A program made the position numbers. This document shows, piece by piece, positions 9,001 through 15,000 of a stretch of 64,000 bases of DNA. The stretch spans positions 1-64,000 of the forward strand of contig JBBQZX010000012.1 of NCBI GenBank assembly GCA_038207335.1, in the 5' to 3' direction. This stretch comes from Chthoniobacterales bacterium. GTDB taxonomy: Bacteria; Verrucomicrobiota; Verrucomicrobiia; Chthoniobacterales; Chthoniobacteraceae. The stretch's first letter is position 1, and the number at the start of each line of letters is the position of its first letter.

Positions 9001-12000
9001 CATGATGCCACAGCCCGGCATGCGCGATCCTCACGGTGATATGCCGCGCGATTTCGACCGCGCGCGTGGCGAGATGGAAGAGCATGTGCGCCGGATGCAG
9101 GAACAGATGCAGCAGCGCGGCAAAGAAATGCAGGATCGGATGCGCGGCTTTCAGCAGCGGATGCAGGAATGGCAGAAAAATCACACTGGGCCCGCGCCGG
9201 AAGCGCCGAACTTTGGGGACCTGCCGCCTCCCCCGCCCGGCCCGCGCGACCTGCTCCACGAGTCCGGCCCCGGCGGCGCACCGAGCGTCACTGCAAATCA
9301 GGACGGCGCGACGACGACCTGGAACACGGCCCGCGCGCACATTCTCGTGAAAGATGACTCCGGCTCGATCGAGGTGAACGCGAAGGACGGCACGAAGACG
9401 CTGACCGCGAAAGACGCGGATGGCAAAGTGATCTTCACAGGCCCCATCGACACCGATGAGCAGCGCAAAGCCCTGCCCGAGGATGTGCGCAAAAAGCTCG
9501 AGAAAATCCACACCCAGAGCCGCGCCGGAGCGTCGGCATTTGCGACGGATACCGAATCCGGGATCGCGCTGGAAATCCAGTAGCACCTCGGAGCTGGCGA
9601 TTTAAAATCTCCCATCGCGGTTTAAAACCGCCGCTCATTCGCAGCTTAGAGGCGGATGCGCCATTGATTAAACCCGCTCGGGCGACCCGCCGCTCGCTTT
9701 CCTTCGTGCCTTTGCGGGTGCACATTTTTCGTGCTTTCCCGGCGCGGGAAATTGGGGCTTTTTCTCCCACCACATGGCTGAGCAGGCGAAAGTCACATCG
9801 GTCGAAGCACTCGAGTATTTTCGAGGCAATTTGATCATTTTCCTTACGACGGCGCATCAGGCGATCGACGAGGTCGGCGATGCGGTGAAGCGCACGCGGC
9901 AATGGATTCAGAACGATCAGCGGCTGTTTTGGGAAGGTGAATTGAAGAAACGCAGGCGCAGGCTCGAGCAGGCGGAGCAGGAGCTTTTCAGCGCGAAACT
10001 CTCGGGCCTCAAGCAGACTTCGGCGGCGCAGGAAGCGTTGGTTCTAAAATGGAAGCGCGCGACGGCGGAGTCGGAGGAAAAGCTGCGCAACATCAAGGGC
10101 TGGAGCCGCAAATACGACAGCGTCGCTGATCCGCTGATGAAGCGATTGGAAGGGCTGCGCCATTTTCTCGACTACGAAATGCCGAAGGCGCTGGCGTATC
10201 TCGTCGAGGCGCAAAAAACGCTCGAAGCCTACGGGACGAATTAGGATTTAGGATTTCGCCGCGACGCAAATTGCCAGACGTTTGAAGCTCTCCCCGAATG
10301 CTAAACCTTAAATGCTAAATTCGACTCATGGCAGCGCGGCCAAACTCGCGCAGGCAGTCAAGGATTTGTCGTTCGAATGGCAGCAGACGCAGGTGTCGTG
10401 GAACGATGTGAAGAGCCAGCAATTCGAGAGGGCCTATCTCGAACATCTCGGGCACGACATCGCACGCGCGTCGCTCGTGATCGCGGATATCGGTGCGCTT
10501 TTGAAAAAGGTCCACGCCGACTGTGAGTAGCCCGCTCGATCTCTCGGTGGATTGCAGCCTCGCGCTGCTCGCGCAGTTGAAATCCGTGCTCGCGGATTTC
10601 GCGCAGCGGGAGAGCGCACTCGGTGGCGATTTGCGGACGCGGCGGCTTTCGAGCGATCGGAAATTTCGCGAGTTCAGCGAGAAAACGCGGACGCGCGTGG
10701 AGGCGGAAATCGCGGCGACACAGACGGACGCGGCGGAGGGCGAGGCGTGGCTGCGAGACAAATACGAGGCGCGGCGGGCGCGCGTGGAGCGGCTGAAGAT
10801 GGTCGGCCTCCGCGGGCTGCCGAAGCGCGCGCAGGAGGCGAAGCAGCGGTGGATGGGCGATTTGCAGAAACGGCAGTTTCGCGCGGAGCGAAAGCGCACG
10901 ACGGGACAGCAGGCGGCGGATGCGGCGTTTGCGAGATTCAAAGCGGCGCTGGCGGAGCAGCGCACGCAGCTCGACGGACAGCGGGGCCGCGCCAGCAAAG
11001 CGTTTCGGGGCTACGGCATTTTTTCGCGGACGCTGAATGCGCGGACGGGCGAGTGGGATTTGTCGGCTTACGATCAGGACCAGTTGCGCGGGGAACTCGC
11101 GGGGCGGCTGGAGCAAATCGAGACGATGCTCGGCGGCGCAGGGGCGCTGATTCCGCGCATCTTCGGCACGGTCCCGCTCGCGGCGATGCTCGGCGCGGTG
11201 GTGCTCGTCGGCGGCGGGTTGGCGTTCGCGCTCGGGCCGCATTCGTTTGCTGGGGTCGGCGCGGCGGCGGTGCTCGTCGTGCTAGTGATTTTAGGCGTGT
11301 ATCTCGTCGGTGGCGCGCAGAGCAAATCGTCGGCGATCGGCATTGCGACAGGGCTTCGCGAGGCACGGCAGATCGAGCAGGCGAGCGAGGCGGCGGCCGA
11401 GGCGATCCGCACATCGGAGCGCGCGCGGCTCGATGCGGAGTTCGATGAGACGGCGGCGGTTGTGGCCGAGCAGTGGCTACGTTCGGAGACGATTGAGGCG
11501 GAATTCGAGGCGGAGGCGCGGACGAAAATCCAGACTCAGGTGCCGCGCATTTTCACGCAAAACGCCGCGATGCTCGTGCCGCGTCTGCGCGTTATCGAGA
11601 CCGGTCGCGAGGCGCGCCTCGCCACGCTCACCGGCGACTCGACCGCGCGCCTCGCGCAACTCACGGAGACCCATGACTCGGAGATCGCCGCGCTCGATGC
11701 CGAGCAGTCGTCGCGCTGGGCGGAATTGATCGCCGATTGGCAACGCCAGACGACGCCGCTTTTCTACGAGATCGCGCAGATGAACGCGGTGACGGATGCG
11801 TTGTTTCCGCCGTGGGATGCGACGTTTGCGGAAACGTGGGAGGCGTCTTCGGAGTTCACGGCGGCGACGAAATTCGCTCGGCTGGAGATCTCGGAAAAGG
11901 ACGCCACTGCACAAAAATCAGTCCCGTCGCTCGCGTCATTTCCGAGGCCAACCGAACTTTCCATCCCACTCGCGCTCACCTTTCCGCAGCAGGGCTCGAT

Positions 12001-15000
12001 CCTTTTCGAGACCAGCGAAGCAGCGGACTCCGCGTCGGTCGGCGCGCTCAATAACATCGTGCTCCGGCTGCTCTCCACAACGCCGCCGGGCAAGCTCGCG
12101 TTCACCTTTCTCGATCCGGTCGGGCTCGGCGAAAATTTCGCCGGGCTCATGCACCTCGCCGACTACGAGGAGTCGCTCGTGAACCGCCGCATCTGGACGC
12201 AGCGCGACCAGATCGAGGAGCGGCTCTCGGAACTCAGCGAGCACATCGAGAAGGTCATCCAGATGTATCTGCGCAACGAATACGCGAGCATCACCGAATA
12301 CAACGCGCAGGCCGGCAGCGTTGCTGAAAAGTATCACTTTCTTGTGGTCGCGGATTTTCCAGCGCAGTTCAGCGAGACGGCGGCGCGACGGCTCCAGAGC
12401 ATCGCGCTCGCGGGGCCGCGATGCGGGATTTTCACGCTCATTCATTGGGACAATCGGCACGCGTCGCCCGATGGGTTCGTCGCGGACGAGCTGCGGAAAA
12501 ACAGCGTCTGTCTGCATCGCGAAGGAGCGAATTTTCTCATCGCTAACCTCGCCATCGCGCAGCTCGATCCGCCGCCGGACTCGGAACTCGCGGTCGCGCT
12601 CGTGCATAAAATCGGGCGGGCGAGCATTGACTCGAATCGCGTGGAGGTGCCGTTCGCGCAGATTGTTCCCGCGCCCGACGAGCACTGGACCGCCGACACG
12701 ACCAACGAACTGCGCATCGCAATCGGACGCACCGGCGCGACGAAGCATCAGTACCTCGCGATCGGAAAAGGGACACGCCAGCACGCGCTTTTCGCCGGCA
12801 AGACAGGCTCAGGAAAATCGACGCTTTTCCACGTCATCATCACGAACCTCGCGCTCGCGTGCTCGCCGGATCAGGTCGAGTTTTACCTCATCGATTTCAA
12901 GAAAGGCGTGGAGTTCAAATGCTACGCGGCGCATCGGCTGCCGCACGCACGCGTCATCGCGATCGAGAGCGACCGCGAGTTCGCGCTGAGCGTGCTGCAG
13001 CGCGTCGATGATGAGCTGAAACGGCGGGGCGATCTTTTCCGAAAACTCGGCGTGCAGGACATCGCCGGATACAAGCGCGCAGGCGGCACCGAGCCGATCC
13101 CACGCACTCTGCTGCTCATCGACGAGTTTCAGGAATTTTTCGTCGAGGACGACACAGTCGCGCAGACGGCGTCGCTGCTTTTCGACCGCATCGTGCGGCA
13201 GGGGCGCGCGTTTGGCATCCACGTCATCCTGGGGTCGCAGAGTCTCGGCGGCGCGTATTCCCTGGCGCGCGCGACCATCGGGCAGATGGTCATCCGGGTC
13301 GCGCTGCAGTGCAACGAGGCGGACGCGTATCTCATCATGGACGACACCAATTCCGCGCCGCGACTCCTCACGCGGCCGGGCGAGGGAATCTACAACGACG
13401 CGGGCGGCGCGGTTGAGGGGAACAGCCCGTTCCAAGTCGTCTGGCTGCCCGACGAAGAGCGCGATCTTTGGCTGGAAAAAGTGAGCGCCCTCGCGCGAGC
13501 GCACGATTTTCCGCAGCGCTCGCCGGTTGTTTTCGAGGGCAACGCGCCCGCGGATATCCGCGAGAACGACGAACTGCACGCGGCGCTCGCTTCAATCGTC
13601 AATCAGCAATCGGCAATCAGCAATCCGAAGTTCTGGCTCGGCGCGCCGAACTCGATCAAGGGCCCGACGGCGGCAATTTTCCGACGGCAGAGCGGGAGTC
13701 ATTTGCTCATCGTTGGGCAGCGCGAGGAGTCGGCGACGACGATGCTCGGGCTCGGATTGCTCGGGCTCGCGGCGCAATTTCCGGCGGGCGACGCGCGGTT
13801 CATTTTGCTGCACGCGGCGGCGCCGGGGAGCGCGGATGCGGAGTTTTTCGAGGGGGTGGCGGCGGCGATTCAGAGGCTTGGAGAACGCTCGAAATCGGAC
13901 GCGGATGTCCAGCTTGTGGGGGCTGCGGAAATTCCCGGAGTCATGGCGGAACTCGCAGGCGAACTTAGCGCGCGACTCGGAGGCGGGGCGGAGCATTTTA
14001 CTGCGAAGGAACAAATCAACGACGAGGAGGAATCGGTAGGTCGCGAGTCTGCGGACAAAACTGCTTCGCGGCCGAAAAATCCGCCGCCGATTTTTCTGCT
14101 CATCGCCGGACTGCACAAATTCAAGAAGCTGCGGCACGAAGACGACTTTTCCTTTTCCAGCGGCGACAGCGAGAGCAGCCCCGGCGCGCAGCTCAATGAA
14201 ATCATCACCGAGGGCAGCAGCCACGGCATCCACATCGTCGCGGCGATCGACACCTTCAATAACGTCAACCGCGCGATGAATCGGAAGGCGTTGAGCGAGT
14301 TCGAAATGCGCGTCGTTTTCCAAATGAGCGCCAACGACAGCGCCAGCCTCATCGACTCGCCAAAAGCCGGCGCTCTCGGCCTGCACCGCGCGATTTTCTA
14401 CAACGAACAGGAAGGCACGCTGGAGACATTCCGCCCATACGCGCCGCCGAGTGCGGCGTGGCTCGCGGCGGAGGACGCGAGGTGAAACGTCGCGCAACCC
14501 GTCAATATGTGACCGCAGGTTGACGCGGATTTCGGAAGCGTGATTCTTCGCTCCGAGAATCCCTCCAGCGAACGCCCGCCGCAATGCGCTTCCTGCCAAA
14601 AAAGCATTTTCGGTGGAGACAGCCAAAGGCGTTCTTGCGGCTTCGAAGTGACTTTGAACGCAACGCCGCACGTTGGTGGTCGGCTCCCGTGCTCACGCTG
14701 TTCTGCGCGGCGTTTCTGATGCTCAGTTGGTTTCTGTCCAGCTTCGCACCTTCTCCCAGGCATCCGCTGCCCTTTCTTGCCGCACTGGGGACTGCCCTCG
14801 GTGGCGGGATTTTCGCGGTTTACCTCGCGCCATGGATCATTTCCATGTGCCCCTCGGAGGTTCAATTTTATGAGAAGTATCTCGCCCGCGTGCAGGGCAA
14901 TACCGCTCCGCAGACCAATTATGCCGACCTCCAGACATTCTCGTGGCGGGTCGGACCGGACTTCGCGACGCTCATTCTCACCCGTCGCGATGGGAAACGG

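Follow-up and report, generated by a model that had tools for sequence, protein, structure and literature searches.

A toxin-less WXG100-ATPase cassette with a predicted membrane anchor in a Chthoniobacterales bacterium: a possible translocase of its own helical bundle

Gram-negative systems built around a WXG100 protein and an FtsK-like ATPase have been in print since 2011-2012, in comparative-genomics papers that, in their accessible parts, name Verrucomicrobia (PMC3482391; PMC11090510; PMC6471051, through which Sutcliffe 2011 counts among the earlier descriptions). Footnote 6 to Table 1 of Zhang 2012 (PMC3482391) describes a solo-WXG gene with a YueA-like ATPase as a 'mobile T7SS' of Gram-negative lineages, verrucomicrobia and planctomycetes among them, in which the ATPase consists of three HerA/FtsK domains and the middle one alone has activity. 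The accessible text of Bell 2024 (PMC11090510) describes a variant linked to CoCoNuT/TerY-P, in which two WXG100-like proteins accompany a coiled coil fused to a nuclease, followed by a further small gene; its ATPase has three domains with D2 alone active, a long N-terminal coiled coil and no transmembrane helices, vWA/PP2C/kinase genes flank it, and a stand-alone form is mentioned with a citation of Anantharaman 2012. Our literature search returned no experimental study of these systems, to which Sutcliffe 2011 and Anantharaman 2012 may be exceptions. Such systems bear on two open points in type VII export, namely the way in which folded helical bundles are moved and whether the pore is made by the ATPase on its own.

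The cassette described here lies in a 64,000-nucleotide stretch of DNA, called the window. The three open reading frames that the genome-wide survey's note had claimed are all present on the forward strand: gene B (9774..10244, 156 aa), gene C (10312..10530, 72 aa) and the ATPase gene (10523..14485, 1320 aa), whose GTG start overlaps the stop of C. The WXG100 gene A (90 aa) lies in the same genome on another contig (C14, 10668-10940, minus strand). Read mapping produced one contig that spans 8457-12219 without differences, and the absence of A upstream of B is therefore not peculiar to one assembly, with the reservation that the mapped run may itself be the source of the assembly. The B/C junction (10241..10325) carries, on our reading of the sequence, heptamer-like short repeats, two direct copies per side with the sides roughly inverted relative to each other, and both the stop of B and the start of C fall inside them. 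In most relatives the start of C is overlapped by B, unlike the separate genes here, and the repeats could be the trace of an insertion.

A genome scan reproduced the survey's figures of at least 427 related stretches and of the complete order A-B-C-ATPase in 66 of 70 loci, this denominator being the 80 loci listed of the 427 minus ten with fewer than 200 bases upstream. To call the unit 'strictly conserved', as the survey had done, overstates its linkage, because its genes stand apart in seven of the genomes examined (this one, G000, and G401-G404, G169 and G289), all of which retain every cassette gene. No conserved flanking gene was found around the 80 listed loci, where the largest flank families comprise 7 loci and are generic.

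Gene A was rightly assigned to the WXG100 family, since its product exceeds the Pfam cut-off (PF06013, 36.3 and 37.2 bits against 27.3), but this holds for the profile and not for the motif: canonical W-x-G is absent, and the central motif is W-x-D in 35/35 aligned members, with W43 invariant in 35/35. The protein falls under the stricter TIGR03930 cut-off (30 against 44.85), is about 82% identical across members and terminates four residues past its Y. Its nearest solved structure is HP0062 (E 2e-6), followed by EsxB/EsxA; the gene for HP0062 clusters with one for an FtsK-like ATPase, and where W-x-G would stand HP0062 carries W-R-D, comparable to the W-x-D of A. Protein C is a short, WXG100-like helical protein in which W-x-D, W23 and W30 are found in 41/41 members and the C-terminal cysteine, C71, is invariant in 41 rows. 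Matches to Pfam WXG100 and WXG100_2 below the cut-offs occur in 3 of the 41 members each (best PF06013 E 0.005), and the profile match of C to A is weak (probability 9.6%, E 0.003).

Protein B is modelled as a single long helical hairpin, with helices at 2-77 and 80-155 (AlphaFold2, pLDDT 90.7). Its W44 and W110 are invariant in 46/46 members, so that the survey's invariant tryptophans are borne out for all three small proteins, but the invariance breaks in B once divergent B proteins are included. B ends in a conserved L-x-x-Y, whose Y is kept in 188 of the 192 rows of the alignment; a Pro/Ala-rich tail typical of most relatives (median 27 aa) is missing here, and the best 150 representatives measure 125-265 aa and have low-complexity tails. 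The C-terminal type VII export motif Y-x-x-x-D/E, as defined in the accessible part of PMC3935865, was not recovered: the Y is conserved, but D/E is outside the six commonest residues at +4. B matched no Pfam family, no toxin domain was found in it, and LXG (PF04740) is missing from the 25 families that were listed for its 46 members. Length-based searches found no fused or toxin-bearing longer B, which is weak evidence, and lengths of about 270-295 were outside their range. A fold search with B gave only coiled coils of a generic kind, their Z scores tied, with ESCRT-III hairpins among many; the absence of type VII substrates from its 50 rows is compatible with kinship. One Atlas cluster of 353-aa B-like proteins has an Imm33-like domain in 64% of its members (score 0.81).

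The ATPase is nearest to EccC/EssC by both sequence and fold and scores below the cut-offs of those families (TIGR03924, 112.7 against 509; TIGR03925, 96.1 against 347; TIGR03928, 82.9 against 778); it is homologous to them yet stands outside them. In the structure model, long N-terminal helices (residues 9-160) and then short helices make up the first arm of a stalk (residues 1-209; 10523..11149; mean conservation 0.29), and helices 239-319 and 321-427 make up the second (residues ~271-427; 11333..11803). Between the arms, hydropathy predicts a membrane hairpin in which a very short loop joins two hydrophobic helices (residues ~210-270; 11150..11332). A hairpin is predicted at the same position in 57/59 full-length relatives, with a short non-hydrophobic turn in its place in L026 and L031, and it is the least conserved part of the ATPase (0.23). 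Domain 1 (~428-700; 11804..12622) has an FtsK/EccC-like fold and lacks both Walker A and Walker B, its best Foldseek matches being EssC 4lya, EccC 4n1a/4nh0 and FtsK 2iut. Domain 2 (~701-1000; 12623..13522) is the only intact motor domain (PF01580, 107.7 bits; conservation 0.81), and its Walker A (759-766), Walker B DE and R-x-G-R are present in 60/60; the single intact Walker A noted by the survey thus recurs once per ATPase in 60/60, always in domain 2. Domain 3 (~1001-1320; 13523..14485) is degenerate, with conserved blocks and a sequence match to EccCb, and it is a candidate substrate-docking part, docking being weakly predicted for domains 2 and 3 together. All of these segments lie on the forward strand. 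A plain FtsK or DNA translocase was considered and rejected, as the ATPase is closer to EccC and a separate 890-aa weak match on contig C15 is presumably the ordinary FtsK.

The cassette shares with type VIIa (ESX) and type VIIb (Ess/Yuk) systems a WXG100 protein and a multi-domain FtsK-like ATPase that is predicted to be membrane-bound; the two membrane helices that their ATPases carry in the N-terminal region are predicted here at residues ~210-270. Unlike EccC/EssC, the cassette ATPase has three ATPase folds, the middle one active by motif, on a long stalk. W-x-G and Y-x-x-x-D/E are not found, and the host is diderm, with an LpxC gene. Profiles for the EccB and EccD of type VIIa and for the EssA, YukC/EssB and EsaB/YukD of type VIIb, and for LXG, gave no match in this genome (94.7% complete) while positive controls rang, Bacillus subtilis serving for the type VIIb components; the searches left out EsaA, EccE and MycP. 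The survey had likewise noted no Pfam rows for EssA, EssB, EsaA or Ecc components. By these features the cassette falls outside type VIIa and type VIIb. The combination of one long helical protein and two small helical ones recalls LXG-Lap1-Lap2, as described in the accessible parts of PMC9600955 and bioRxiv 2024.01.30.577966, but B is not LXG by Pfam.

Closer still is the solo-WXG kind of Zhang 2012: three FtsK/HerA domains are found with Walker A solely in domain 2 (60/60), and a solo WXG gene is linked to the ATPase in 66/70 listed loci, although not in this genome; the footnote itself does not mention B, C, stalk or hairpin. Compared with the variant in the accessible text of Bell 2024, the cassette has no nuclease, no further small gene and no conserved flanks, and it has the hairpin of 57/59 relatives, which is absent from the ATPase described there. 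The module is not a new class, because the kind already stands in comparative-genomics papers naming Verrucomicrobia, which limits the value of the find. What this branch adds is a toxin-less B without an immunity gene, a usual membrane hairpin on a long stalk, and a near-core place in its family. Our literature search listed no description of such a toxin-less anchored branch, which Sutcliffe 2011, Anantharaman 2012 or the supplementary material to Zhang 2012 and to Bell 2024 may cover.

The contrast with nuclease-bearing, hairpin-less relatives was overlooked in the survey's reading. In L099, on a Helicobacter plasmid, the B position is held by a coiled coil fused to a WHH/HNH nuclease and followed by a SUKH gene, and the ATPase is shorter (823 aa) without the stalk-tip hairpin. 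In L098, L100, L101 and L135, which fit the CoCoNuT/TerY-P-linked variant (Bell 2024), a coiled coil with a restriction-nuclease-like domain (motif identified by eye) takes that position. ATPase membrane helices are absent in all five, the toxin-bearing relatives examined, and nuclease and hairpin never occurred together in the sets examined. One genome (G410) carries two cassettes, one toxin-less and the other with a nuclease. A nuclease carrier with small genes is the layout of a secreted toxin with targeting factors, by analogy with the accessible part of PMC9600955. The alignment of B with the nuclease carrier domain runs end to end but is weak (probability 13%, E 0.002, against E 0.04-0.5 for the controls), and their possible homology stays below a confident level; profile-to-single-sequence comparisons of B and C with their positional counterparts in Helicobacter and Caballeronia were not significant.

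The survey's restriction of the cassette to Verrucomicrobia does not stand, and in Atlas clusters of its proteins Planctomycetota are commonest. The cassette is rare in a sample of the phylum (14/401 genomes) but near-core (15/18) and single-copy in this genome's family. Of 27 related genomes, 18 hold A, B and the ATPase together and the remaining 9 hold none of the three, these genomes being kin and not independent. The GC of the cassette is host-like, plasmid and phage records are few (the phage records with one partial, unannotated match), and viral contig searches gave one 15-residue match and otherwise none. No RNA record was listed as holding it, a result without bearing on its expression. 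The branch is best explained as a mostly host-retained rather than mobile form of the solo-WXG system. The FastTree tree carries long-branch warnings; we therefore claim no rooting and no direction, toxin lost or toxin gained.

The best reading of these observations remains the survey's stripped-down WXG100 module with a helical bundle, which gained weak new support and lost its novelty as a class. We give an even chance to its being an ATP-driven translocase of a WXG100 bundle without toxin cargo. A, C and B would assemble into a helical bundle comparable to LXG-Lap1-Lap2 or PE-PPE, as weakly predicted. The ATPase, probably a hexamer like other FtsK-family motors, would hang under the inner membrane on its long coiled-coil stalk, with the two-helix hairpin as the tip, and domain 2, judging by its motifs, would hydrolyse ATP. 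In a four-chain prediction the A-B-C bundle docks on ATPase domains 2 and 3 together, with weak support (0.46 against 0.02 for the best control; contacts in agreement to at least 79%, with a partner pLDDT of 79 or more), and B appears to be needed, the score falling to 0.00 once B was replaced. The mark for this score was reached by 116/157 solved and 2/215 mismatched pairs, 18 of the 157 solved pairs and both mismatches lying at 0.60 or under, and the score may reflect likeness to solved EccC-substrate complexes. The bundle, whole or in part, would then pass into or across the inner membrane; periplasm or membrane is the suggested destination because the cassette has no linked outer-membrane component. 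On this reading the cargo would be the bundle itself, since the analysis found neither a toxin nor an immunity gene nor a further protein like B. It is possible, if on balance unlikely, that a lone membrane-anchored ATPase on a long coiled-coil stalk is a complete translocase in a two-membrane bacterium, the PVC cassette having been tamed from a mobile toxin form into a toxin-free, family-core one with its own bundle as cargo (or the hairpin having replaced the nuclease as effector). If that is true, no working type VII-like system would be smaller, and the cassette would directly test whether EccC/EssC forms the channel by itself. The hairpin, least conserved and absent in 2/59 relatives and in the toxin-bearing ones examined, does not fit an essential pore.

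Toxin without anchor, set against anchor without toxin, raises the question of whether secretion takes place in these Gram-negative systems. One rival, which we consider improbable, is a device for intracellular conflict or against phages; it would use the ATPase to hold or dismantle the A-B-C bundle as a switch, with the hairpin or a membrane-inserting bundle as effector; in the TerY-P/CoCoNuT-linked relatives the switch would free a nuclease, replaced here by a membrane effector. Defence systems commonly swap a nuclease for a two-helix membrane effector, and the lack of any overlap of nuclease and hairpin in the sets examined, the TerY-P/CoCoNuT islands in which the helix-less toxin-bearing relatives lie, and the patchy occurrence in the phylum all agree with such a device. 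However, L026 has an intact cassette, yet neither hairpin nor nuclease, and the near-core, single-copy status, the conservation of A, the host-like GC, the few mobile records and the unconserved flanks tell against it. PADLOC has no model that A, B or C matches, and those matched by the ATPase are generic ATPase models; among the neighbours, 8/124 at 32 loci matched, four of them generic enzymes, a count with no baseline and with three TerY-P controls silent, and hence a weak test.

More doubtful is a housekeeping envelope machine, in which the ATPase would recycle polymers or bundles of the helical A, B and C at the inner membrane without net export, by analogy with PspA/ESCRT-III plus an ATPase in membrane stress or remodelling. 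The cassette is toxin-less, strongly conserved, retained when split and PVC-enriched, B is a long hairpin with ESCRT-III among its fold matches, and the stalk weakly matches a dynamin-like LeoBC model (E 3e-4), but those fold matches are generic and tied, the cassette is missing from most genomes of the phylum sample, and its parts are clearly of WXG100/EccC descent. Least probable is an exporter for toxins encoded elsewhere, with A, B and C as core machinery or adaptors and substrates whose carrier domains are too divergent: type VIIb effectors are often encoded apart from their apparatus (PMC9600955, accessible part) and G410 has both cassette types, but a search of this genome with four profiles turned up no further protein resembling A, B, C or the carrier, the LXG profile had no match, and the length-based searches, weak as evidence, gave no long B fusion.

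A four-gene, toxin-free version in harmless, culturable soil bacteria would make the question of bundle movement and pore formation testable with few parts; among the relatives are Chthoniobacter flavus Ellin428 (L039) and also Verrucomicrobium sp. BvORR106 (L010).

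Genes B (window 9774-10244, 156 aa), C (10312-10530, 72 aa) and the FtsK/EccC-like ATPase (10523-14485, 1320 aa), whose start overlaps the stop of C, lie where the genome-wide survey's note had placed them, and the WXG100 gene A is indeed displaced to the minus strand of another contig (G000:C14:10668-10940; G000 is the genome under study). Its product passes the Pfam WXG100 model and, among solved structures, best matches H. pylori HP0062, followed by EsxB and EsxA. Each of the four genes is present in G000 in one copy, and both sites lie about 10 kb from contig ends. A contig of run X1 spans window 8457-12219 with zero differences, although X1 is possibly the source data and hence not independent. 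Since A-B-C-ATPase is unbroken in all 11 loci fetched from near relatives, the split of the cassette in G000 is probably a recent event.

The description of these genes as a conserved four-gene unit holds for most loci. A scan of GTDB counted 427 related stretches; the 80 that were listed were analysed, with gene presence scored by profiles built in this analysis. All four genes occur together in 66 of the 80, and in 10 the upstream sequence is shorter than 200 bases. The remaining four carry C and the ATPase (L013 and L031) or the ATPase alone (L074 and L079); their genomes all encode A and B elsewhere, with C beside A/B in two. Two further genomes have A-B-C on one contig and the ATPase on another. 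The linkage is thus broken, at three different joints, in seven of the genomes seen, none of which has dropped a gene. Of 27 related genomes searched for A, B and the ATPase, nine lack every one of them, and in the other 18 all three co-occur. The cassette is present in 15 of 18 genomes of the family and in 14 of 401 in an even sample of the phylum, where the 13 carriers besides G000 comprise 11 of the same type and two of a nuclease type. No conserved flanking gene was found. In a FastTree tree of 78 ATPases, which gave long-branch warnings, orders cluster (nine changes vs a shuffled mean of 16.5) without clean separation, compatible with mostly vertical inheritance plus some exchange. The B profile matched 2643 representatives at 50% clustering, and the nearest ESM Atlas clusters are commonest in Planctomycetota; together these extend the branch across the PVC group, contrary to the restriction to Verrucomicrobia first proposed.

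B is predicted to be a single long hairpin (pLDDT 90.7) that ends in L-x-x-Y and a Pro/Ala/Ser/Gly-rich tail (median 27 residues). Lengths range from 125 to 265 aa among the best 150 of the 2643 representatives, and the seven longest, on inspection, carry only such tails. An Atlas cluster of 353 aa, 64% of whose members have an Imm33-like domain, scores 0.81 to B. A and C share a W-x-D motif; a solitary divergent WXG-like paralogue occurs in genome G411 (L136:6049-6564), with partner genes not found nearby.

In the ATPase, Walker A and B are confined to domain 2 in 60 of 60 sequences, as the single intact Walker A motif noted earlier had indicated; conservation is highest in this domain (0.81) and lowest in the hydrophobic membrane hairpin (0.23). 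A model of residues 1-720 (pLDDT 84, pTM 0.57) places long helices at 9-160 and 239-427, with the hairpin at about 210-270 between them, and the domain that follows best matches EssC, EccC and FtsK in fold. From the helix lengths, we read the two arms as an antiparallel stalk, perhaps 20 nm or longer, that is tipped by the hairpin. Of 59 full-length relatives, 57 have the hairpin; the other two, a sister pair (L026:2847-6587 and L031:8837-12589), have a short turn in its place. The L026 cassette is otherwise intact, and the pair provides a natural test of the need for an anchor. Most relatives are without a charged, low-complexity insert in domain 3 (about 30-40 residues, window about 13960-14080). 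An Atlas cluster of 448 aa (1236 members, commonest in Planctomycetota) scores 0.94 to the stalk, hinting that stalk and motor are separable as distinct genes.

When A, B, C and ATPase residues 701-1320 were modelled together, with the ATPase scored as partner, the score was 0.46 (weak support) vs 0.02 for the best control and 0.00 with B replaced; contacts agreed by at least 79% and partner pLDDT did not fall below 79. In calibration, 116 of 157 solved pairs and 2 of 215 mismatched ones passed the mark, with scores of 0.60 or under for 18 of the 157 solved pairs and for both mismatched ones; as this calibration was made on pairs, it is only approximate for four chains. Resemblance to solved EccC complexes may add to this score. 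Given the gene content, co-retention, motifs and predicted folds described here, we put at even the chance that A, B and C form a bundle resembling LXG-Lap1-Lap2, which would dock on a hexameric ATPase and be driven by ATP into or across the inner membrane.

The chief difficulty for export comes from relatives that carry a toxin; these plasmid and genomic loci keep the gene order but hold an additional part. On a Helicobacter sp. plasmid (L099) the order is WXG, a coiled coil-WHH nuclease fusion, SUKH, a 77-aa gene and the ATPase. A Caballeronia plasmid (L098), G160, G260 and a second locus of G410 encode vWA proteins, WXG, a carrier, products of 110-130 and 75-87 aa, and the ATPase, followed, where read far enough, by vWA, PP2C and kinase genes. 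The carrier there joins a restriction-nuclease-like domain (motif by eye; no Pfam match) to a coiled coil about 200 residues long. G410, of the same genus as G000, has both toxin-less and nuclease-bearing types. A deep B profile aligned end-to-end with the carrier domain, from the N-terminus to L-x-x-Y (probability 13%, E 0.002; controls E 0.04-0.5), whereas single-sequence comparisons were not significant. B is therefore the positional counterpart, and possibly a distant homologue, of the toxin carrier, minus the toxin. The C-terminal domains of 120 homologues form one cluster, so in that set the toxin shows no polymorphism; the carrier hairpin tip bears a Cys pair. Nuclease-bearing WXG/ATPase genes extend TerY-P-type islands in Verrucomicrobiota (L135, G410:C40:1000-20000; L100; L101) and on the Caballeronia plasmid. 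A Deinococcus plasmid (L096:6384-11623) encodes a small protein ending in a membrane helix, the ATPase, two WXG-like proteins, a 326-aa all-coiled-coil protein and a 144-aa protein, apparently one more form lacking a toxin, its membrane piece being encoded by a small gene of its own; a Rhodococcus locus (L097) has a different C-terminal domain.

All five toxin-bearing relatives have ATPases without the membrane hairpin, relatives with the hairpin carry no toxin, and both are missing from one intact cassette; three alternatives therefore keep some weight. An intracellular defence switch is unlikely: A, B and C match no PADLOC model, composition is host-like, and 8 of 124 neighbours gave a PADLOC match, half of them generic, in a weak test with no baseline and TerY-P controls unmatched. 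A membrane-maintenance machine seems improbable, and an exporter of unrecognised cargo has slimmer prospects still. With export of the bundle itself preferred, it is a doubtful further step that the lone membrane-anchored, stalked ATPase would be a full translocase in a two-membrane host (LpxC is present in G000), tamed from a mobile toxin cassette and carrying its own bundle as cargo.

YukC, EccB, YukD, EssA, EccD and LXG gave no match in G000, which agrees, for YukC, EccB, EssA and EccD, with the reported lack of other type VII membrane components. The cassette is predicted to work like a type VII core, yet by the features tested it falls outside types VIIa and VIIb and belongs to the solo-WXG kind. 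This kind is already in print: Zhang et al. (2012; PMC3482391) describe solo WXG domains in lineages including verrucomicrobia and planctomycetes, beside a distinct three-domain ATPase with the middle domain alone active. PMC6471051 cites Sutcliffe (2011) for WXG100 in Verrucomicrobia, and HP0062/HP0066 were termed a minimal type VII set (Uchiyama et al., 2016). The operon of Bell et al. (2024; PMC11090510), who also mention a stand-alone form, encodes a pair of WXG100-like proteins together with a coiled-coil nuclease and an ATPase that has a coiled coil but no membrane helices, whereas the G000 cassette has the hairpin and no toxin. Neither a description of this toxin-less, membrane-anchored, family-core branch nor an experiment on the solo-WXG/three-domain ATPase kind was found in the literature searched, and subscription papers and supplements may hold either. 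The cassette is real.

Immediately upstream of B and on the same strand, window 7157-9583 encodes an ECF sigma factor (Pfam), a 175-aa probable anti-sigma factor that matches no family and a PDZ protein whose N-terminus is signal-like, a group not found next to the cassette in other loci. In locus L001 (G000:C14:7891-10940), the displaced A is directly upstream of a shikimate dehydrogenase-like gene, with truB- and ribF-like genes near, all three named by eye from sequence. Heptamer-like short tandem repeats, which may be small repeat insertions, occur at the B/C junction (window 10241-10325) and, in frame and adding a few residues, within the ATPase gene (13598-13630); genome-wide, exact tandems of the four heptamers are few.
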